This document shows, piece after piece, positions 19,972 through 31,079 of a DNA stretch of 64,000 nucleotides. The first letter of the stretch is position 1; each line of letters begins with the position of its first letter. A model generated the notes under the pieces. The model was not told where the DNA came from. It searched no databases and saw nothing but the letters and a program-made list of their open reading frames with translations. Where the stretch lies: positions 4,064,001 to 4,128,000 of the forward strand of contig OY761159.2 of the NCBI GenBank assembly GCA_963664395.2, in the 5' to 3' direction. Source of the DNA: Candidatus Binatia bacterium (GTDB lineage Bacteria; Desulfobacterota; Binatia; Bin18). Position numbers and translations under genes: made by a program.

Positions 19972-20343
19972 ATGAACCTCGCAAAAGTGGCACAACTGTT
20001 TGTTTCTAAAACGGTCTGGAACGTCACGGGTTTTGATGCGGCTGGCCGCGCGCTAATCCACGCTCTCAACTCTGATGACGAGAACATTCGTACCATAGCT
20101 GGAATGTTCCTCGTCCAAACCGGACAGCGGGCCGAGCCGCTCCTTGAGGAGGCACTGCACAAAGGCCAGTATCTTCCGATGGTCATCAATGTTCTCGGGA
20201 GCATTGGGGACCCAGGAATTGTGTCCGAGTTGCGTCCATTCACCAAAGACCGCGACCCTGAAATCGCCCAAGCCGCCCAAGATGCAATTCGGGCCATTCA
20301 TTTCGCGAGTCGATCAGACCCCTCAGCGAGTAGGTCGGATTAG
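19972..20343 (+). CDS. small HEAT-repeat protein
   Basis: LIHALNSDDENIRTIAG, VLGSIGDP, DRDPEIAQAAQDAI; GAGG RBS; stop TAG lies in the downstream REP. Confidence 0.7.
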   Translation: MNLAKVAQLFVSKTVWNVTGFDAAGRALIHALNSDDENIRTIAGMFLVQTGQRAEPLLEEALHKGQYLPMVINVLGSIGDPGIVSELRPFTKDRDPEIAQAAQDAIRAIHFASRSDPSASRSD

Positions 20344-20402
20344 CGGAGCGTAATCCGACAAGGACGGGATGTCGGGTTACGCCTGTGGCTAACCCGACCT
20401 AC
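20330..20402. repeat. GTAG-family REP doublet in inverted orientation (REPIN-like)
   Basis: gtaggtcggattagcggagcgtaatccgaca ... tgtcgggttacgcctgtggctaacccgacctac; GTAG/CTAC termini, each half a hairpin. Confidence 0.8.
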
Positions 20403-21605: not shown

Positions 21606-22844
21606 ATGACCGAACACACACAGATTCTTGAAGGGGTGCGTATTCTTGACCTGACCCAATGGCTGGCCGGACCGCAGGCCACGCGGCTGATGGTTGACCT
21701 TGGGGCGGAAGTCATCAAGGTTGAACTCCCACCCAAAGGTGAACACAGCCGGCACATCCGCATCGTGCCCAAGGACGGCAAGGATGGCGCTACGCCGAGC
21801 TATTTCATCATGCACAACCGGGGCAAGAAGAGCCTGTGCGTGGATATCAAAACCCCGGCCGGCCAAGCTGTCATCAAGGATTTGGTCCAGCACTGCGACG
21901 TGCTGTTCGAGAACTTCACGCCCGGCATCATGGAGCGCTACGGTCTGACCTACGACAGCCTGTCCGCCATCAACCCGAGCCTCGTTATGTGCTCGGTCTC
22001 GACCTACGGGCAGACCGGGCCGTACTCCCGCCGCATCGGCAACGATCTGGTTGCTCTGGCGGCTGGCGGATTGCTGCATCTGGTTGGCGAGCCGGACGGC
22101 TATCCGGCCTATCCGGCCTCGGCCATTGGCGATCACATGACCGCGCTCAACGCCTTCGGCGCGATCATGGCGGCCCTGTTTCATCGTCAGCGCACGGGCG
22201 AGGGCCAGTATATCGACCTGGCCCTGGTGGACTGCACCTACAACTCGCACGACTGGGCGCTGGCGGCCTACAGCGTGACCGACGGCGCGGTCGACCCGCA
22301 GCGCGGTGGCTCGCAGCGGGCCGGGGCGTTTCCGTACGGCGCGTTCAAATCAAAGGACGGCTATATCGCCATCGGACTGATTACCGAAGCTCATTGGGTG
22401 ACGTTGGTGAAACACATGGGGCACGAAGAGTTACTGACCTCGCCCGAATTCAAGACCAACCGCTGGCGCATTCAGAACGCGGACGCCCTGCGCGTCATTA
22501 TCGAAGAGTGGCTGCAATCGCTGCCGAGTGATGAAGAGGCGATTCGGATTATGGCCGATGAACTCCGCCTGCCGGTTGCCCCGATTCTGTCCGTCGGCCA
22601 ATTCGCGGAAGACCCGCATTTAAGCAAACGCATGATAGAAACCATGCCCAACCCCGACTACGGCGAGCTGAAGCTACTCAAATCTCCCCACAAATTTTCC
22701 AAAACCCCGCCGCGCATCCCCGGCCCGGCGTCACGCCTTGGTCAACATACGGACGAGTTGCTGGGCGGCTTATGCGGATATACGGCCGAACGGATACGGG
22801 AATTAAAGGACCAGGGCATCCTTGTTGAGAATGCGGAAGGGTAG
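21606..22844 (+). CDS. CaiB/BaiF family III CoA-transferase
   Basis: LEGVRILDLT..LAGP, DLGAEVIKVE, NRGKKS, ENFTPG, G.GQYIDLAL, LGQHTDE. Confidence 0.92.
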   Translation: MTEHTQILEGVRILDLTQWLAGPQATRLMVDLGAEVIKVELPPKGEHSRHIRIVPKDGKDGATPSYFIMHNRGKKSLCVDIKTPAGQAVIKDLVQHCDVLFENFTPGIMERYGLTYDSLSAINPSLVMCSVSTYGQTGPYSRRIGNDLVALAAGGLLHLVGEPDGYPAYPASAIGDHMTALNAFGAIMAALFHRQRTGEGQYIDLALVDCTYNSHDWALAAYSVTDGAVDPQRGGSQRAGAFPYGAFKSKDGYIAIGLITEAHWVTLVKHMGHEELLTSPEFKTNRWRIQNADALRVIIEEWLQSLPSDEEAIRIMADELRLPVAPILSVGQFAEDPHLSKRMIETMPNPDYGELKLLKSPHKFSKTPPRIPGPASRLGQHTDELLGGLCGYTAERIRELKDQGILVENAEG

Positions 22845-22863
22845 CCAATGACAAGGAGAGCGT

Positions 22864-23613
22864 ATGCAGAAGCGGAAGAAAATGACGGGCAGTTGGAGGA
22901 CGAGCAGGGTGCTGACAATCGGGCTCGTCTGCGCTGTGGGTCTGCTGCCGCTGACCGCTCAAGCTCAAAACGCAGCCTATAACCAGACCACTCTGGTCGC
23001 ACTGTGTAAGATATCCGCCGCCGGTGCCTCGGGTCGGTTCGACACCGCCGAGCAACTCTTCAGCGGGGGCAAAGACGCCGGACTCAGCGAACTCCAGATG
23101 TACGAGGCGGTCTTGAACCTGCTGCCCTATATCGGCTATCCGCGGACTCTGAGCACGCTGGGACGCTTTCAGCAGGTATATCCCGACTACATCAGCCAAC
23201 GTTCCCAGGGGCAGAGTCCCCAGCCGACCGAACCCTGGCCGGAGTATGCCCCGACCATCTGGGGAGAACGCGGGATGCGGGTTCAAGAGCAGCTAACCGG
23301 CGGCAGCGAGGAGAACAAAAGGCTCATCCAGCGGCTCAGTCAGATCAGTCCCGAACTGGCCGAATGGGTGCGCTATGACGACTTCGGTCGGGTCTTTGGT
23401 CGAGCCGGGCTACTTCTGATTGAACGCGAAGCTATCGTGCTTGGCGCGCTGATTGCCCAGGGAGCGCCCCAGATCGCTTTTCACTACAAAGCCCTGCTCC
23501 GCGTCGGGGGCGATGACAGCCTGGTCGATGCCCTGCTTGAGGCGGTAACGGACATCGTGGATAAAAGGGCGCTGGCCTCCGCGCGGCACCATATTGCCGA
23601 GGCACGCAAGTAG
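22864..23613 (+). CDS. exported carboxymuconolactone decarboxylase/AhpD-like protein
   Basis: Signal peptide (..AQAQ); PYIGYPR and FGRVFGR.GL..ERE..V motifs typical of tandem CMD domains; start uncertain. Confidence 0.6.
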   Translation: MQKRKKMTGSWRTSRVLTIGLVCAVGLLPLTAQAQNAAYNQTTLVALCKISAAGASGRFDTAEQLFSGGKDAGLSELQMYEAVLNLLPYIGYPRTLSTLGRFQQVYPDYISQRSQGQSPQPTEPWPEYAPTIWGERGMRVQEQLTGGSEENKRLIQRLSQISPELAEWVRYDDFGRVFGRAGLLLIEREAIVLGALIAQGAPQIAFHYKALLRVGGDDSLVDALLEAVTDIVDKRALASARHHIAEARK

Positions 23614-23618
23614 GAAAC
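23536..23618 (+). repeat. direct repeat A1 (3' end of CMD-like gene); partner A2 at 27396-27478
   Basis: 83 bp, 7 mismatches by manual alignment. Confidence 0.92.
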
Positions 23619-23634
23619 CACTGTAGATGAGGCC

Positions 23635-26472
23635 ATGACGCCAAGCCAATTCATCACCAAGTGGCACCCCTCCCAACTCAAAGAGCGCTCGGCGTCGCAA
23701 GAACACTTCATCGACCTGTGTCGGCTGCTGGATGAACCCACGCCCGCCGAAGCCGACCCTATCGGCGACCACTACTGCTTCGAGCGCGGTGCGCGTAAAG
23801 ACACCGGCGGCAAAGGTTGGGCCGACGTGTGGAAGCGTCACCACTTCGCCTGGGAGTACAAAGGCAAACACAAGAATCTGGACGCCGCCTTTAATCAGTT
23901 GCGGCAATCCGCCCTGGCCCTGGAGAATCCGCCCCTGTTGATCGTCTCGGACATGGCGCGGTTCCGTGTCCGCACCAATTGGACCAACAGCGTCAGCGAG
24001 ACCCACGAGTTTACGCTGGACGATCTCGCGGACGCAGCCACGCGCAATATCTTAAAATGGGCGATGTCCGAGCCCGAACGGCTCCGGCCCGGCGAAACTC
24101 GCCAAACCGTCACCGAACGCGCGGCCACCACTTTTGCCGCCCTGGCGCAGGCGTTACGGGAGCTCGGCCACGAGAGTCACGTCGTTGCGCATTTCGTGAA
24201 CCGTCTCGTCTTCTGCATGTTCGCCGAAGACGTGGGCCTGCTGCCGAACAACATGTTCACGCGGATGTTGGAACGCAGCCGGCTCAAGCCGGAGCAGTTT
24301 GTCGAGTATGCATCGCGTCTGTTTGGCGCGATGTCCACGGGTGGCGATGTCGGTTTCGAGGAAGTGGCGTGGTTCAACGGCGGGCTGTTCGACGATGACA
24401 CGGCCCTGCCGCTGGAGAAAGCCGACATTGACACCGTACTCGTGGCGGCGGCACTCGACTGGTCGGAGATTGATCCTTCGATACTGGGTACGCTGTTCTA
24501 GCGCGGGCTTGACCCGGACAAACGCTCGCAACTAGGCGCGCATTACACCGACCGGGACAAGATCATGCTGATCGTCGAGCCGGTGATAATCCGCCCCTGG
24601 CTGGCCGAGTGGGAGACGGCCAAGGCCGAGATTGTGTCGAGTCTGGAAAAGGAAACTGCCGCCAAATCAGCCTCTACACAGACCCGGCGACGTAGAGAGG
24701 CCGAGCGCCTGTTAGGTCAGTTCCTGGAGCGGCTGCGGAGTTTCACCGTGCTTGATCCTGCCTGTGGCTCTGGCAACTTCCTGTATCTGGCGCTTCATGC
24801 CCTCAAGGACTTGGAGCATCGCGTACAGTTGGAGGCCGAAGCGCTGGGCTTAGAGAGAGAATTCCCCGCCCTCGGTCCGGCCAACGTCAAGGGTATTGAG
24901 ATCAACCCCTACGCTGCCGAACTGGCCCGTGTGTCGGTCTGGATTGGCGAAATCCAATGGATGCGGCGCAACGGTTTCAACGAATCCCGCGCCCCGATCC
25001 TCAAACCGCTCGACACCATCGAATGCCGGGACGCCCTCCTGACGCCGGAGGGGAGGGAATCCGAGTGGCCCGAGGCCGATGTCGTGATCGGGAATCCACC
25101 GTTTTTGGGTAGCAAGCGAATGCGGGAGGTATTGAGCGACGAGTACACGGAAAGCTTGCGACAGTCCTATGCTGGTGCGGTCCCGGCATTCGCGGACCTT
25201 GTGTGCTACTGGTTCCATAGAGCGAGTGAGCTGGTAGCCGAGGAGAAGATTTCTCGTGGTGGCTTGGTCGCTACCAATTCGGTCCGGGACGGGAGGAGCC
25301 GAGTTGTGATCGACCGGATTGCTGAAAGCGGTATCATTTTCGAGGCATGGTCTGACGAGCCCTGGATAGTTGAAGGGGCTGCTGTGCGGGTCTCCATAGT
25401 CTGCTTCGCTGGCCAGGAAGCTGGACTTACTCCTCATCTGAATGGTGTGCCGGTGGGTTCCATCCATACTGACCTTACAGCAGACGGTGTTGATCTGACG
25501 CAAGCGGTTCAACAGGCCGAGAACAAAGGCGTAGCATTTGCGGGCAACAAGAAGTACGGCACGTTCGATATTCCCGGCGATCTTGCGCGAACTTGGTTAT
25601 GCCTGCCTGCCAATCCGAACGGCAAGCCGAACTCCGATGTCCTCAGGCCATGGATCAACGGGATGGATGTGGTCCGCCGCCCTGCTGGTAAGTGGATTAT
25701 CGACTTCGGTTCTTCCATGAGCGAATCTGATAGCGCCCTCTACGAAGTGCCGTTTGCCCATGTGGCGGAACACGTCAAGCCGACGCGCATTAAAGACCGC
25801 GCAAGACAGACCAGAGAACTCTGGTGGAGGCATGAACGTCCTCGCCCGGAAATGTGGAGGGTGCTGCAAAGTTTATCACGCTACATCGCAACTCCAGCGG
25901 TTGCAAAGTATCGCCCGTTCGTCTGGTGTGACGCTCGGATTTGTCCGGATCAGCAACTGATCGTCATCGCGCGCGACGACGACACAACGTTCGGTATCTT
26001 GCACAGCCGCTTTCACGAGGTCTGGTCGCTCCGGCTGGGAACCAGTCTGGAAGACCGTCCGCGCTACACGCCCACCACGACGTTCGAGACGTTCCCGTTT
26101 CCAGAAGGACTATCGCCTGACATCCCCGCCGCCGACTATGCCGACAATCCACACGCCGTTGCCATTGCCGAGGCCGCCCGGCGGCTGGTCGAGTTGCGCG
26201 ACCGCTGGCTCAACCCGCCCGAATGGGTGGAGTGGGTAGACGAACCGGTGCCCGGCTATCCCAAGCGCCCGGTTCCCCGCAACGAGGATGCCGCGAAAGA
26301 ACTCAAGAAACGCACCCTGACCAACCTGTATAACACTCGCCCACAATGGCTGGCCGACGCGCACACCGCCCTTGATGAAGCCGTGGCAGCGGCTTACGGC
26401 TGGGACGCTGATATTTCTGACGATGAGGCGTTGCGCGAACTGCTGGAGTTGAATCTGGCGCGAAGCGAGTGA
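23635..26472 (+). pseudogene. MmeI/YeeA-like type IIG/IIL restriction-modification enzyme interrupted by one in-frame TAG at 24499-24501
   Basis: Nuclease ADVW..FAWEYKG, GTLF*RGLDPDKRSQLGAHYT, motif I DPACGSGNF, motif IV GNPPF, C-terminal RTLTNLYN; ORFs 23635-24501 and 24565-26472 share a frame. Confidence 0.88.
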
Positions 26473-26514
26473 AAAGTACCCGGCGGGAGGAGATGTTGGG
26501 TTACGTTTCGCTAA
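26426..26514 (+). repeat. direct repeat B1 (3' end of RM gene plus truncated REP); partner B2 at 27303-27396
   Basis: 52-bp core with 5 mismatches (ALRELLELNL..E* coding) followed in both copies by gagatgt..ggttacg.ttcgctaa. Confidence 0.88.
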
Positions 26515-26538
26515 GGGTCCTCGTCGAGTGGGTGCGGT

Positions 26539-26567
26539 TTGACCAGGTCGCTTCTAGTTGCTACTTT
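26539..26567 (+). promoter_or_regulatory. sigma70-like promoter, probably giving a leaderless antitoxin mRNA
   Basis: TTGACC (26539-44), 17-bp spacer, TACTTT (26562-67); ATG 7 nt later with no SD. Confidence 0.55.
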
Positions 26568-26574
26568 TCCGTAC

Positions 26575-26868
26575 ATGAGAGCGGTTGGAATAAAAGTATT
26601 GAACAGCCGGTTAAGCGAGTATGTGCGGCTCGCTGCATCGGGCGAGACCATTCTGGTCACGGACCGCGACCGTGTTGTCGCGGAAATCGGTCCTCCGAGA
26701 GAAACCAGAAGCCCAATGCTTGCCGATGCACTGCTGGCCGAGGCCGTGCGCAAGGGGTGGCTGACGCCGCCAACGCTGCCCGCCACGGGGGAGCCTCCGA
26801 CTCCGGAACGAGTTGCGCCGCTCTCTACTCTTCTTGGCGAATTGGATGCCGATAGAAGCGAACGGTGA
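26575..26868 (+). CDS. Phd/YefM family antitoxin
   Basis: MRAVGIKVLNSRLSEYVRLAASGETILVTDRDRVVAEIGP; overlaps the PIN gene (GTGA). Confidence 0.88.
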   Translation: MRAVGIKVLNSRLSEYVRLAASGETILVTDRDRVVAEIGPPRETRSPMLADALLAEAVRKGWLTPPTLPATGEPPTPERVAPLSTLLGELDADRSER

Positions 26869-27260
26869 TCTACCTCGATACCTCTGTTGTGCTCGCCCAA
26901 CTCCTGGCGGAAGACCGCCGCCCACCCATCTCGCTTTGGGACGGGGCCCTGGTGGCCAGCCGGTTGATGGAATACGAGGTCTGGACCCGACTACATGCGC
27001 GCGGACTTGCGGAGTCGCACGGCGAGGCCGCAAGCGGGCTCATCGGACGGGTCGCGTTGCTGGAGCTATCCCCACCAGTGCTCGCGCGCGCCCTGGATGC
27101 TTTTCCCGTGCCTGTTCGCACGCTCGACGCCCTGCATCTGGCGTCATGCGACTACCTGCGCAACCAAGGGCAGGCGGTCTCGCTTGCCAGCTACGATCGC
27201 CGGATGACCGCCGCTGCCCGCGCCCTGGCTATGCCGGTCTACGACCTGGAACCCTCCTGA
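26865..27260 (+). CDS. vapC: PIN-domain ribonuclease toxin
   Basis: MIYLDTS, RTLDALHLA, LASYDRRM..AA. Confidence 0.9.
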   Translation: MIYLDTSVVLAQLLAEDRRPPISLWDGALVASRLMEYEVWTRLHARGLAESHGEAASGLIGRVALLELSPPVLARALDAFPVPVRTLDALHLASCDYLRNQGQAVSLASYDRRMTAAARALAMPVYDLEPS

Positions 27261-27302
27261 ACCGTGCGACGGATTACGGTCGGAACGAGGCGAGCGACGG
27301 AA

Positions 27303-27478
27303 AGGCGTTGCGCGAACTGCTGGAATTGAATCTGACGCGGGGTGAGTGAAAAGTGATTGGTAGCGGTGAAGAGATGTCAGGTTACGCTTCGCTAACTTGA
27401 GGCGGTAGCGGACATCGTGGACGAAAAGGCGCTGGCCTCCGCGCGGCAGCATGTTGCCGAGGCGCGCAAGTAGGAAAC
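27303..27478 (+). repeat. abutting orphan gene ends B2 (RM gene 3' end + cut REP) and A2 (CMD gene 3' end)
   Basis: Matches 26426-26514 and 23536-23618; joined at gctaac|ttgagg. Confidence 0.9.
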
Positions 27479-27500
27479 AAATTTTCAGAGGGAGCGCAAA

Positions 27501-27533
27501 GATGTCAGGCTGCGCTTCGCTAACCTGACCTAC
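27501..27533. repeat. complete GTAG-family REP (gatgtcaggctgcgcttcgctaacctgacctac)
   Basis: Same family as 20370-20402; truncated copies at 26492-26514 and 27373-27396. Confidence 0.8.
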
Positions 27534-27556
27534 AGCTCTAAGGATGGGGAGGGACG

Positions 27557-28512
27557 GTGACAAACGAAACCAGCGGATTTCGCTTATACCTGCAAGTGCG
27601 GATTGGAAATAACCTGAATACCGATGAGGAACTCCTCACAACCTACCTTGATGGGCGAGAGGTGACGATCAGACCCAGCTATGGGCCTCCGTCGATTTCA
27701 AAAGCGGAGTGGCTCGTCTTCGAGGCGCGTGGGTTCCCCACCGAACCGGAAGCGCGTACTTTCGGCGAGCGGCTCAGAGCAAACGTACAGCTTGCGGCGC
27801 TTTGTTCCAGCCCTGGTACGTTGATACGGGCCTAGACGAGGTCTTAGGTTCGATCAACGAAGAATACTATCGGTCAAAGGGCTGGCTGAAACCCCACCAG
27901 CGGCACGGCGATGATGTACATGGTCTCTTAATTCTCCCCGATGATGACAATACGGTGTTTAGCCGCGGCCGGGCGAAGGGAACGACCAAATCGGATCCTA
28001 AGCTCTTCCTTGAGGCAATGCGCGAACTAGCCGATCAACCGTCAGTCACAGAACCTACAATCGCTCTTTCAGTGCGGCTCCTGAATCTTGCTCACATCAA
28101 TTCTCAGCCACCCGCCAGAATCGTCCTCGCTGTTTCAGCCGTCGAGACGGTCGCTCAGGACGAGAATTGGACTGATGAGCAACGTGCTTTGATAAAGAAT
28201 CTCGCTGTGGAGATTGAAGATCCAGAAGTCAAAGAAGCCGTCAAACGTATGCATATGCATAAGATCAGCATACTACAGGGGATAAAACGGGTGCTGGATA
28301 ACAATAGCCTCGGCCATCTGTGGGGAGAGTGGAAAGACCTTTATGAGCGCCGCAGTCGTTTCTTTCATGGAGGCAGAGAGTTCACAAGGCAGGAGATCCA
28401 GAAACTTGCTTCCGACGCCCTGAAGCTCTGCGGCAAGATTATTCTTGGGATCATCAAGCGAACGGGCCTCAAGCTGCCATCTGTTGCCAGCGTGAATTTC
28501 AGAGGTATCTAA
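27557..28512 (+). pseudogene. frameshifted HEPN-domain protein (ApeA/MauJ-like)
   Basis: Two overlapping ORFs join near 27815-27820 (LCSSPG|VDTG); LAVSAVE helix and RxxxxH motif RSRFFHG; GGAGG RBS. Confidence 0.6.
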
Positions 28513-28631
28513 CACGCAGCAAGCCTTAATGACTGCTACGCCTTGTTCTCAACGAGCCCCGGCGATAGACAAGCGCGGGAGTTTTTGTTTTTCTAGGCAG
28601 CCTCTACCATGAACCCATAAGGAGAACGCGT

Positions 28632-29645
28632 ATGCTGCCAGTTGGTTATCTCCCCTGTACTCAAGACCCCCCGTCCGGGACGAATATGGGGCGGGTGATT
28701 GATGAAGTGATTGCCGAAGCCCAGGCCGCCGAGGCCAGTGGCTGGGACGGCTGTTTTCTGACCGAACACCACCAACAGGAAGATGGCTATCTGCCCAACC
28801 CGTTGCTGCTGGCCGGATTGGTTGGGATGAAGACTGAGCGCCTGAAGGTTGGGACGTGCGTGCTGTTGATGCCGCTCCACCATCCCGTTCATGTTGCGGA
28901 AGACTGTGCCGTGATTGACCAGGCGACCAAGGGGCGTCTCGTCCTGAGCATCGGTGTGGGCTATCAGCCGCACGATTTCGAGGCGTTCGAGATTCCGATC
29001 ACCGAGCGAGCCACCCGGACCGAAGAAGCCGTCGATATTATCCGCAAGAGCTGGACGGGTGAGCGCTTCTCTTTTGAGGGCAAACATTTTCACTATCAGG
29101 ACACTTTGATTACGCCCGGTCCGAGTCAGCAGCCGGGCCCGCCGATCTGGATGGCGTCGTGGACGCCGGTCGGGCTGCGCCGTGCGGGCCGGCTGGCGGA
29201 TGGCTGGATCGCCGATCCGGTGCAGAGTCTCAGCGTCATTAAAGACTATGCCGCCCGCTATCGCGCCGCGGCGGAAAAGGCTGGCCGCAAGCCGTATATC
29301 TGCCTGATGCGGGATGCCGTGCTGGCCGACAGCATGGCCGACGCCGAAGCCGCCAGCGAGCCGACCATGTATACCCACCGTTTCTACTTTCAGTACGACG
29401 CCTATGTCCCGGATGAACATATCAAAGATGTCAAGACGCCCGAAGAGCTGACCTTTGCCACGGCCTCCACAGAACGGCTGATCGTCGGTTCGCCCGAAGA
29501 CTGCCTGGAGCAACTCCAGATGTGGAAAGAGGCCATTCAGCCGGACTACTTGATTATGCGCTTTCGACAGCCGGGCGGCCCGTCGCATGAGCATACGTTG
29601 CAGGCGATACGAACCTTTGGTGAAAAGGTGATTCCGAATTTGTAA
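28632..29645 (+). CDS. LLM-class flavin-dependent oxidoreductase
   Basis: AEASGWDGCFLTEHH, HPVHVAED, GRLVLSIGVGY, AGRLADGW. Confidence 0.9.
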   Translation: MLPVGYLPCTQDPPSGTNMGRVIDEVIAEAQAAEASGWDGCFLTEHHQQEDGYLPNPLLLAGLVGMKTERLKVGTCVLLMPLHHPVHVAEDCAVIDQATKGRLVLSIGVGYQPHDFEAFEIPITERATRTEEAVDIIRKSWTGERFSFEGKHFHYQDTLITPGPSQQPGPPIWMASWTPVGLRRAGRLADGWIADPVQSLSVIKDYAARYRAAAEKAGRKPYICLMRDAVLADSMADAEAASEPTMYTHRFYFQYDAYVPDEHIKDVKTPEELTFATASTERLIVGSPEDCLEQLQMWKEAIQPDYLIMRFRQPGGPSHEHTLQAIRTFGEKVIPNL

Positions 29646-29659
29646 GGAGTTTTCAGTGA

Positions 29660-29692
29660 CCCTCACCCCGACCCTCTCCCAGGGGGAGAGGG
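29660..29692 (-). repeat. REP-like element, ccctctccc..gggagagggc.ggggtgaggg family
   Basis: Reverse copy of the elements at 44808, 44950, 63569 and the split copy at 17443-17579. Confidence 0.8.
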
Positions 29693-29702
29693 AGAGGACA
29701 AG

Positions 29703-31079
29703 ATGATGGAAATTCCGCTGACTCAACATCTGGCCGCATTCTGTACCCGGCTCGATTACGACAGCCTGCCGGCCGAGGTGGTTGATCGGGCCAAGTATTT
29801 CTTTCTCGACTATCTGGGCGTTGCGGTGCGTGGCTCGCTGTCCGATTCCAGTCAGCCGCTCTACCGTATGGCGAACAGCCTTGCTTCGGCTGGGCGGGGA
29901 ACGGTCTTAGGCCGTCTGGAGAAAGTGGACTTCCCGTATGCGGCCCTGGCCAACGGCACGTCCGCGCATAGTCTGGAACTGGACGACACCCATCAGGCCG
30001 GGTCGATTCATCTCGGTGTGTCGGTCTTTTCTGCGACGTTAGCCGTTGCGGAGCAGGTTGGGGCGAGTGGCAAGGATTTTCTCACAGCTAGTGTTGTCGG
30101 CTTTGAGGTTGCCGCCCGGCTGGCCATGGCGCTGAAACCGGCAGAGCACTATGGGCGCGGATTTCATCCGACGGCGACCTGCGGTACCTTTGGCGCCGCG
30201 GCCAGTGCGGCCAAGCTGCTGGGGTTGAGTGAGGCGCAACTGCTGTCCGCCCTCGGCATCGCCGGCAGTCAGTCTGCCGGGTCTATGGAGTTCCTGGCCG
30301 AGGGTGCCTGGACGAAACGTCTCCATCCGGGCTGGGCCGCATTCAGCGGTATCCACGCCGCTCTGTTGGCAAAAGAAGGCTTCATTGGTCCGCGCACGAT
30401 CCTCGAAGGACGGGACGGCTTTCTCAAGGCGTATGGGGTGCGGCCCGAGCCGAGCAAAATCAGCGAGGGTCTGGGCGAGGATTTCCAGATTCTCCATACC
30501 GCAGTCAAACCGCACGCCTGCTGCCGCTACACTCAGGCTCCGATTGATGCCGTGCTCAACATCGTACAGGAACACGATGTGAAACCGGAGCAAGTCGAGC
30601 GGGTCACCATCGGCATGCTCGAAACAGGTATTCCGGTGATCTGTGAGCCGGGCGAGCGCAAGTCTCGGCCCACGAATGTAGTTGAGGCTCAGTTCAGCCT
30701 GCCCTTTGGCGTTGCGGTGGCGGTGGTCAAACGCCGGGCCGGGCTGGATGAATTTTCTGAAGTCATGTTGGAGGACGCCGCAATCGTAGCGCTCATGTCC
30801 AAGGTCGGGTACGAACGTGACCCGGAGCTGGAAAAAAACTATCCCAAGGAATGGCCGGCCTGGGCGCGTGTCTCTCTGACCAATGGACAGGAAGTCTCTG
30901 CTCAGGTCCGTTTTCCAAAAGGCGATCCGGAGAACCCGTTATCGTGGGATGAACTGCGGGTGAAATACGCCGATCTCGTGAGCGCGGTGTGGGCGGACTC
31001 CCGCGCTGCCTGGGCATGCGAGGCTGTCCGGACGCTTGAAGACGAATCCGATCTCCGCAATGTGACCCAAGGGCTGTAA
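29703..31079 (+). CDS. MmgE/PrpD family protein
   Basis: AALANGTSAHSLELDDTH, RGFHPT, KRLHPG, KPHACCRY, AQFSLPF, KGDPENPL. Confidence 0.92.
   Translation: MMEIPLTQHLAAFCTRLDYDSLPAEVVDRAKYFFLDYLGVAVRGSLSDSSQPLYRMANSLASAGRGTVLGRLEKVDFPYAALANGTSAHSLELDDTHQAGSIHLGVSVFSATLAVAEQVGASGKDFLTASVVGFEVAARLAMALKPAEHYGRGFHPTATCGTFGAAASAAKLLGLSEAQLLSALGIAGSQSAGSMEFLAEGAWTKRLHPGWAAFSGIHAALLAKEGFIGPRTILEGRDGFLKAYGVRPEPSKISEGLGEDFQILHTAVKPHACCRYTQAPIDAVLNIVQEHDVKPEQVERVTIGMLETGIPVICEPGERKSRPTNVVEAQFSLPFGVAVAVVKRRAGLDEFSEVMLEDAAIVALMSKVGYERDPELEKNYPKEWPAWARVSLTNGQEVSAQVRFPKGDPENPLSWDELRVKYADLVSAVWADSRAAWACEAVRTLEDESDLRNVTQGL

Follow-up and report, generated by a model that had tools for sequence, protein, structure and literature searches.

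Stranded gene tails suggest integrase-free accretion of cassettes in a defense hotspot of a Candidatus Binatia bacterium

The subject of this study is a 64,000-nucleotide stretch of the genome of a Candidatus Binatia bacterium (assembly GCA_963664395.2, contig OY761159.2, positions 4,064,001 to 4,128,000), referred to below as the window; the genome studied is denoted G000, and other G numbers stand for congeneric genomes. Between two convergent core genes of the window, one for a family III CoA-transferase and one called orfY, an MmeI-like type IIG restriction-modification (RM) gene and a vapBC toxin-antitoxin (TA) module are enclosed by two nested pairs of repeats, which contain the 3' ends of genes and are accompanied by repetitive extragenic palindromic (REP) elements. 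We consider, with a probability of roughly 60%, that this locus documents successive integrase-free insertions, layer upon layer, into a hotspot. Its features, in window coordinates, are as follows (ORF, open reading frame).

21606-22844, plus strand: CoA-transferase family III gene (Pfam PF02515, E 1.9e-108), the conserved left flank of the hotspot
22864-23613, plus strand: CMD-family gene (Pfam PF02627), a variable cassette in its own right, found in 12 of the 21 genomes
23536-23618, plus strand: A1, the working 3' tail of the CMD gene (final 78 coding nucleotides including the stop codon, and 5 nucleotides more), proximal copy of the outer repeat
23635-26472, plus strand: MmeI-like type IIG RM gene, putatively brought in by the outer insertion and disabled by a nonsense codon
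26426-26514, plus strand: B1 unit, composed of the RM 3' tail, a spacer and a REP cut after GCTAA; beta type
26515-27308, plus strand: vapBC module, with an antitoxin-like ORF at about 26578-26868 and a PIN toxin gene at 26865-27260
27303-27396, plus strand: B2 unit, composed of a stranded alpha-type RM tail, a spacer and a REP cut after GCTAAC
27396-27478, plus strand: A2, a stranded CMD tail, distal copy of the outer repeat; the C at 27396 is common to it and the cut REP
27500-27533, plus strand: full REP behind A2, with a hairpin at 27504-27529 followed by CTAC
27557-28512, plus strand: orfX, the last variable cassette before the right border, of no Pfam or NCBIfam family
28552-29729, minus strand: right border of the hotspot, composed of the conserved 41 nucleotides downstream of orfY and orfY itself (28593-29729)

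The order and coordinates of the repeats, as given in the initial annotation of the window, were confirmed by a repeat search and by BLAST. A1 (23536-23618) and A2 (27396-27478) are 83 nucleotides long, 92% identical with 7 mismatches, and 3860 nucleotides apart (BLAST E 2e-28). B1 (26419-26477) and B2 (27296-27354) share 86% identity over 59 nucleotides at a distance of 877 nucleotides, and in gapped alignment their similarity reaches through the spacer and a part of the REP (26426-26514 against 27303-27395, 81.7% identity, E 1e-18). Both pairs are nested direct repeats, and the cargo is surrounded by more than 30 bp of repeated sequence in each case (83 nucleotides for A, 59-93 for B).

All five Pfam domains of the RM protein (MmeI_N, MmeI_hel, MmeI_Mtase, MmeI_TRD and MmeI_C) are found across two ORF halves; a single in-frame TAG (24499-24501) interrupts the reading frame at a conserved Glu codon, still present in the intact orthologue of G012. 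Contigs of 3 of 4 public sequencing runs have G at 24499, and related genes may be the source of these contigs. Codons from about 500 to 800 of the RM gene (window 25100-26000, the target-recognition region) are 49-75% identical to the G012 orthologue, as compared with 84-94% elsewhere in the gene; by its sequence, this looks like an allelic replacement of the target recognition domain (TRD) between G000 and G012. The vapC product belongs to the PIN family (PF01850, 33.8 bits). The antitoxin-like ORF upstream overlaps its gene by 4 nucleotides, and shows a weak match to Phd/YefM (21.5 against a cut-off of 29.8). The orfX gene is frameshifted in G000 by a 2-nucleotide insertion near 27817, and intact in G012 (315 aa).

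The vapBC unit (26515-27308) is a discrete module. Its left end recurs at other loci of three relatives (G006b, G007b, G014b), in the first two of which both unit boundaries are the same, and its right junction displays the GAGGC microhomology. Together with B2 and the REP it moves as one block: in five genomes vapBC is followed by an alpha-type RM tail and a REP, in three different left contexts. B1 and B2, being of the beta and the alpha type, are tails of two RM alleles; the RM gene of G012 ends in the alpha-type tail, which with its full REP is 94.5% identical to the B2 unit. Fusion of vapBC to a REP cut after GCTAA is found in G002 and G005 as well. A2 is orthologous to the A2 of G012 (5 mismatches), and the junction of CMD tail and REP that follows it is shared with G011, where it joins CMD to a REP; the arrangement CMD-REP-orfX occurs in none of the 21 genomes.

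For a comparison within the genus, the interval from the stop codon of the CoA-transferase gene to the conserved 41 nucleotides behind orfY was taken from 20 genomes and G000. G013 and G017 have intervals of 99 and 100 bp and G022 one of 250 bp, and those of G012 and G016 measure 7375 and 7599 bp. Three of the 21 genomes possess the RM gene in full length, and three a complete vapBC pair. Further occupants are Uma2, Schlafen/AlbA_2, NACHT-HEAT STAND, AAA_16 and HEPN_LA2681 proteins, as well as deoxyribosyltransferase-like, RTX, PAS-HTH and DUF2157/GDYXXLXY ones. The growing defense hotspot, proposed initially from the sequence of the window alone, is thus recognized as a defense-rich interval of 99-7599 bp which appears to have been built by accretion. 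In G016 (L024 1988-5791), a gene for a 1267-aa NACHT-HEAT STAND protein, with internal tandem repeats of about 93 nucleotides, and an AAA_16 gene sit between the CoA-transferase and CMD genes.

When each of the 21 loci was compared with itself, at least five independent tail duplications were recognized at this site, all of them direct and comprising gene 3' ends with the stop codon. Duplications of 5' heads were not seen in any of the 21 loci.

Event A: CMD tail, 83 nucleotides, in G000 and G012
Event B: RM tail, about 90 nucleotides, in G000, G001, G002 and G012
Event C: CoA-transferase tail, about 50-62 nucleotides, left as a remnant 3' of the CMD gene in G018, G021 and G023, its decay differing in each
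Event D: CoA-transferase tail, 326 nucleotides, 95.7% identity, in G002, enclosing the CMD gene, an RM remnant, vapBC, B2 and a REP
Event E: orfY tail, on the other strand, 78 nucleotides, 91% identity, in G006

Both border genes are affected: displaced tails of the CoA-transferase gene are found in G002, G018, G021 and G023, and that of orfY in G006.

The same arrangement recurs elsewhere in the genome. A 12-mer diagonal scan of contig C1 (4.82 of 5.04 Mb) yielded 309 seed clusters, 191 after merging, with 59 isolated pairs, and the 50 isolated pairs with an aligned length of at most 450 nucleotides were classed with the help of a rough ORF map (minimum 120 aa). In 12 of these 50, the 3' tail of a long ORF (44-366 nucleotides, 74-93% identical) is repeated 0.4-11.3 kb downstream, in the same orientation and outside any long ORF. 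Of the remainder, one is a tail pair of opposite polarity and two involve 5' heads, most of the others being within-gene or intergenic repeats; the bias is significant for polarity (12 against 1, P 0.003) and for tails over heads (13 against 2, P 0.007). Enclosed as cargo are two vapBC pairs, a DUF4258/DUF2283 pair with a REP doublet, a methylase/HATPase/Phd block, an AAA_21 ATPase, a cupin and glyoxalase pair, a 2402-aa surface protein and small unknown ORFs. A complete type I-F CRISPR-Cas system (Cas1, Cas2-3, Csy1-4) lies between lptE and a 44-nucleotide stranded lptE tail (C1:3496656-3507992, L054); a truncated vapC head adjoins the stranded tail at that locus. The GC content of cargo (0.56-0.65) is similar to that of the flanks, so composition gives no sign of a distant donor.

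The central question is whether the two copies of a tail arose in place or were brought together as alleles. Native and stranded tails were compared in 18 pairs, 16 of which were usable, two having been dropped as they contain no stop codon within the repeat. The 155 differences are distributed over codon positions 1, 2 and 3 as 45, 20 and 90, which departs from a uniform distribution (P 2.6e-11) and from neutral drift of one copy after an in-situ duplication (P 8e-5). Such a predominance of third-position differences indicates that the copies are diverged alleles rather than in-situ duplications. The CoA-transferase tails of G002 provide an example: they differ at 14 sites in 325 nucleotides, and of the 13 codons changed in the 321-nucleotide coding part, 11 are synonymous and 2 alter the residue. 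Over 107 codons the frame of the stranded copy is still open, and the working copy holds most of the lineage-specific changes. In the working tail (L015, approximately 1496-1528), five G:C-to-A:T changes unique to G002 are clustered within 30 nucleotides; these may reflect either clustered mutation at a recombination tract or the sequence of an unsampled donor.

Which copy is the resident one can be judged at empty sites. Clean ones were found for two of the genome-wide cases, namely in G011, G012, G013 and G017 for the ADH-vapBC case, and in G021 for the luciferase-TA case; there, one tail runs directly into the sequence found behind the stranded copy in G000. In the luciferase-TA case, the G021 tail and the stranded copy agree in 100 of 111 positions, as against 96 of 111 for the working copy, and the end of the latter, GAAGACCTGCA..., is common to the cargo-bearing G002 and G005. 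Both observations indicate that here the stranded copy is the resident one, and that the working tail arrived together with the cargo. A switch from resident-like to foreign-like sequence falls inside the repeat in this case and in G002, which, as far as such alignments go, is suggestive of a crossover within the tail. The earlier proposal that each cargo came with a diverged allele of the upstream tail is therefore supported by the codon positions, the G002 pair and one case of an identified resident copy; for the vapBC insertion at the locus, either tail may be the imported one.

The alternative that fares best is a true insertion with long target duplication, in which cargo is pasted between widely staggered breaks, and the copies are identical at first and diverge later. 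Such insertions of RM genes were reportedly described by Nobusato et al. in 2000. [quoted passage not shown] Furuta, Abe and Kobayashi (2010, PMC2853133) describe RM genes between long direct repeats spanning stop codons, with no mobility genes, as a class whose mechanism is unknown. However, the repeats reported there are nearly identical to the target (for example 45/46 or 47/47), while those found here are 4-26% apart, no pair being less than 4% diverged. Moreover, our copies bear the mark of separate evolution as working genes and so are not duplicates of a target: second codon positions are avoided (20 of 155 differences), the in-situ model is rejected by the test given above, 11 of 13 changed codons are synonymous in the G002 pair, and in the luciferase case the proximal tail has the variants of cargo-bearing genomes and the distal one those of the empty-site genome. 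The cargo differs as well, as it includes TA, CRISPR-Cas and non-defense genes, with REPs at distal ends and with nested events. We therefore regard long target duplication as an unlikely explanation of the tail pairs. A separate observation concerns C1:495107-500138 (L060), where a gene for a 1034-aa Eco57I/MmeI-type methylase lies between direct repeats of 152 nucleotides with 97% identity; it is possibly a classical case of long target duplication in the same genome.

Another possibility is that the tail pairs are attL and attR sites of site-specific integrative islands which have lost their integrase gene or are served by an integrase in trans. Gene 3' ends are classical targets of integrases, whose elements bring a replacement tail, and one of the five tyrosine recombinase genes of the genome, two of which are of XerC/D size, is located 5.8 kb from one of the 12 cases. 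Nevertheless, none of the five lies in the window, and Pfam scans recognized integrase or transposase families in none of the 57 window ORFs (a picked set, 90 aa or longer), none of 46 ORFs from the hotspots of 16 relatives, and none of the 63 ORFs in or beside cargo intervals (11 of the 12 cases and three other repeat pairs); for the window, this agrees with what the initial annotation had stated. Five tyrosine recombinase genes would also have to account for 12 different target genes, for cargo as small as 0.4-0.9 kb, and for repeats whose length varies from 44 to 366 nucleotides. Remnants of such islands are thus a quite improbable source of the repeats.

The distal junctions are frequently associated with REPs. 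The three REP-like copies of the locus lie at 26491-26514 (ending in GCTAA), 27372-27396 (ending in GCTAAC) and 27500-27533 (full, GTCAGG..CCTGAC followed by CTAC); a hairpin fold was predicted only for the full copy (-7 kcal/mol, z -2.6), the first cut copy being unfolded. They are diverged members of a family composed of GTAG and GTCGGATTAGCG.AGCGTAATCCGAC, of which 73 copies were found at up to 6 mismatches. Altogether, the genome contains three GTAG-type palindromic families, REP1 (73 copies), REP2 (18) and REP3 (about 5). GTAG stands beside an imperfect palindrome and many copies are intergenic, as is expected of REPs, which are mobile repeats; dozens of copies, frequent inverted doublets and a gene similar to those of REP-associated tyrosine transposases (RAYT) are also reminiscent of REP/REPIN-RAYT systems. 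An inverted, REPIN-like REP1 doublet lies at 20330-20402. Visual inspection spoke against reading the REP as an integron attC site or a XerCD/dif module, because their core sites do not match and recombinase genes are absent from the vicinity.

In 4 of the 12 cases in G000, a REP lies exactly between the end of the cargo and the stranded tail: a REP1 cut at GCTAAC before A2, a REP1 doublet followed by CTACAAGG and then the tail in the luciferase case, a REP3 followed by CTACTACA and the tail in an antiporter case, and a REP3 cut after GTAGGGGCGA in a case of 8.7 kb. REP-associated positions amount to approximately 5.2 kb out of about 486 kb of crudely defined non-ORF DNA, which gives at least four hits in 12 a rough P of about 6e-6. 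Two of four further events in relatives abut a REP too, event D (CTACG, then GCTG, in G002) and event E (CTACCGGA, then the tail, in G006), so that 6 of 16 events do so overall. Events A and D, whose anchors (the CMD and CoA-transferase tails) are unlike, terminate at the same REP behind B2. Where both parents are readable, they overlap at the junction by 1-5 nucleotides: C, or C.TGA with one mismatch, in event A, GAGGC between vapBC and the RM tail, and GCTG in event D. The search for other duplicated tails beside REPs, recommended when the locus was first annotated, has thus disclosed a strong enrichment. The suggested common break point of truncated REPs fared differently: GCTAA and GCTAAC do nearly coincide at the locus, but the cut varies elsewhere (GCTAACCT in G004), and other junctions lie 1-8 nucleotides beyond a complete REP or contain none, hence a common break point is no rule. 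A few truncated REPs were found genome-wide besides the two at the locus, by a search that detects only cuts in the middle third of the element and therefore says nothing on the randomness of cut points.

This association raises the possibility that RAYT, and not host repair, cuts and joins REP-bounded cassettes at the distal junction. It would explain the enrichment of REPs and the several joins 1-8 nucleotides past the CTAC end, and would be in keeping with near-identical 84-nucleotide REP doublets, many copies of which occur in every congener searched. A RAYT-like ORF with HUH and Tyr motifs, recognized by eye, is indeed present (C1:3119200-3119960, minus strand). On the other hand, it scores below the NCBIfam cut-off (59.5 against 80 bits for NF047646), contains an in-frame insert and is not flanked by REP1, which is absent within 10 kb. 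Also, junctions fall inside the stem, after the element or where no REP exists, with no common cleavage motif, and a REP is found at one end of the cargo only. For these reasons, direct action of RAYT at the junctions seems rather improbable. The insert of the ORF comprises about 40 aa, its DNA resembling REP2, and a second RAYT-like copy lies 7.6 kb away (C1:3111955-3112315, 84% identity over 361 nucleotides).

It could also be supposed that stranded tails are leftovers of complete second gene copies whose 5' parts were deleted. Deletion remnants do exist at the hotspot (a 178-nucleotide RM tail, a CMD head and fragments of vapC, specified below), yet this explanation requires an extra copy in the same orientation for at least 12 different genes, the distant congeners G013, G017 and G022 have single copies with short empty sites, and there is an excess of tails over heads (13 to 2) and of one polarity over the other (12 to 1), which makes it very improbable.

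Stitching of haplotypes of co-occurring strains, conceivable for a metagenome-type assembly of 14 contigs with 5.4% contamination, is so unlikely as to be nearly negligible, because the single-contig genome G012, from a different species of the genus, has the same nested order (A1-RM-B-...-vapBC-B2-cut REP-A2-full REP-orfX) and the same junction of REP and A2, and because contigs from public runs of other studies, one of which may be the source sample, bridge the joins. These contigs cover the passage from B1 through the REP to vapB (26251-26604 and 26298-26880, 0 differences), that from vapC through B2, the REP and A2 to the full REP (26949-27587 and 27281-27552, 0 differences; 27306-27587, 1 difference), and that from the CMD gene through A1 to the RM gene (22600-23933, 4 differences). 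Two weak joins in the run contigs, of 26192 to 27316 and of 27335 to 28552, probably stem from related RM alleles or from relatives.

We propose, then, that DNA from a related genome would bring the 3' end of the upstream gene, in the form of its own allele, followed by cargo, and would recombine with the resident gene within the last 40-330 nucleotides of the latter. The far end of the cargo, often at a REP hairpin or a few bases past it, would be joined to the start of the resident tail illegitimately, with 1-5 nucleotides of microhomology. The gene would remain whole with the imported tail, and the resident tail would be stranded downstream. At our locus, the outer event may have brought in the MmeI-type RM gene, bounded by A1 and A2, and the inner pair, B1 and B2, may have arisen as a vapBC module was joined to the RM tails of two alleles. 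As for the molecular route, we infer one of two. Either a donor fragment, from the interior of the tail to the REP, would be circularized or excised as a circle and enter by a single crossover in the tail, or one-ended homologous recombination or break repair would copy the tail and the cargo, and the end would be joined to resident DNA. Classical end-joining is unlikely, as Ku was not found in the genome; ComEC is present, which is uninformative. That the surviving repeats are short and diverged may be because long identical ones would delete the cargo. REPs are known as gyrase-binding sites and as join-points of duplications, and candidates for what makes them preferred ends are hairpin-induced breakage or polymerase release, gyrase, and RAYT.

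A bolder version of this proposal, which we put forward as tentative and rather unlikely, is that REPs, cut or nicked by RAYT or by hairpin processing, delimit gene blocks which circularize and re-enter by recombination in the tail of the gene with which they were excised, in a genome-wide, integron-like and integrase-free manner. If true, a REP-block cassette system would build core defense hotspots, extend to whole CRISPR-Cas loci, and leave a readable stratigraphy of tails.

Several findings weigh against the proposed record of insertions. The A1/A2 pair alone is devoid of the allelic signature, as 5 of its 7 changed codons are non-synonymous; a donor genome of A1 was not found, the comparison of its 83 nucleotides with 12 orthologues being without signal and thus uninformative. 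The polarity of the B pair is unclear from the sequences, as the tail imported with vapBC could be either B1 or B2. No REP is present at 8 of the 12 junctions in G000. Plain deletions leave tails at the site as well, the RM gene being cut to its last 178 nucleotides in G002 and G005, and other remnants are about 40 nucleotides of the CMD head kept in G019 and the partly deleted vapC of G005, G011 and G012. The genome-wide scan was limited to C1, relied on ORFs defined by a crude longest-ORF rule, and overlooked weak pairs, B1/B2 included, so its 12 cases are a lower bound. Finally, no intermediate was observed, neither a circle nor an excision product; the contigs of four public runs contained no A1-A2 join or circle junction, which, as contigs lose rare forms, is no evidence either way.

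A few observations concern the surroundings of the locus. A stretch of about 33 nucleotides at the 5' end of orfY (29659-29692) recurs with approximately 90% identity beside RM and vapBC paralogue loci (G000c, G006b, G006c, G012b, G014b, G019c), and alignments of orfY break at this stretch in G002, G006, G011, G012 and G021; the stretch probably represents a further small mobile repeat. A PrpD-family gene is also among the genes of the window. When words of the window segment 22600-28700 were looked up among DNA runs, the largest shares were found in runs labelled as sponge metagenomes; over all runs, those with the largest shares bear coded organism names.

Hotspot building by tail displacement has precedents, and in this genome it recurs across the chromosome regions scanned. 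For the displacement of rhs 3' ends, homologous recombination with circular intermediates was proposed (Jackson et al. 2009, PMC2935791), and for effector-immunity arrays of the type VI secretion system (T6SS), homology-facilitated illegitimate recombination (HFIR) (Kirchberger et al. 2017, PMC5361080). In rhs, contact-dependent inhibition (CDI) and T6SS loci, like here, an incoming 3' end with cargo replaces the resident end, which is pushed downstream, and repeated events give rise to arrays of orphan ends with no integrase involved. In those systems, the new tip encodes another toxin domain and is accompanied by the cognate immunity gene, and a long conserved core serves as the anchor. In our cases, by contrast, the imported tail is another allele of the last 15-110 codons of an ordinary gene, and the payload lies behind the stop codon.

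In transformable bacteria, HFIR was reportedly demonstrated by de Vries and Wackernagel in 2002, Prudhomme et al. in 2002 and Meier and Wackernagel in 2003. Its reported products are insertion-deletions. Our events share with HFIR (see also PMC3240628) one homologous end and one illegitimate end with microhomology, foreign DNA being gained beside the anchor, but here the resident end of the anchor is retained, which is not the usual outcome of HFIR. Retention of this end fits a circular intermediate or a variant of break repair better.

In core defense hotspots, according to Johnson et al. (2023, PMC10250203), the route of assembly was left open, and no scars are expected from homologous exchange. 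As described there, such hotspots resemble ours as variable, defense-rich intervals between fixed core genes which are not obviously parts of mobile elements. They differ from it in that the stranded tails found here are scars, recording the order of additions. Within the open-access literature, REPs as ends of transferred gene cassettes were not found, nor was anything relevant to REPs in conjunction with illegitimate recombination, and long target duplication in connection with TA, CRISPR or REPs was named as such in a single review; the combination of ordinary tail anchors, allelic repeats and REP-bounded cargo up to the size of CRISPR-Cas was likewise not found in that literature, taken without supplements.

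The stranded tails of this bacterium give the order of events, the imported DNA appears to have brought its own allele of the anchor gene, and REP hairpins are indicated as preferred ends of the blocks. Tail, cargo and REP thus constitute concrete substrates for experiments on the route. Since the same signature surrounds TA modules, RM and methylase genes and a type I-F CRISPR-Cas system in one genome, it may be a general and searchable marker, and stranded tails may mark integrase-free gene gain generally.

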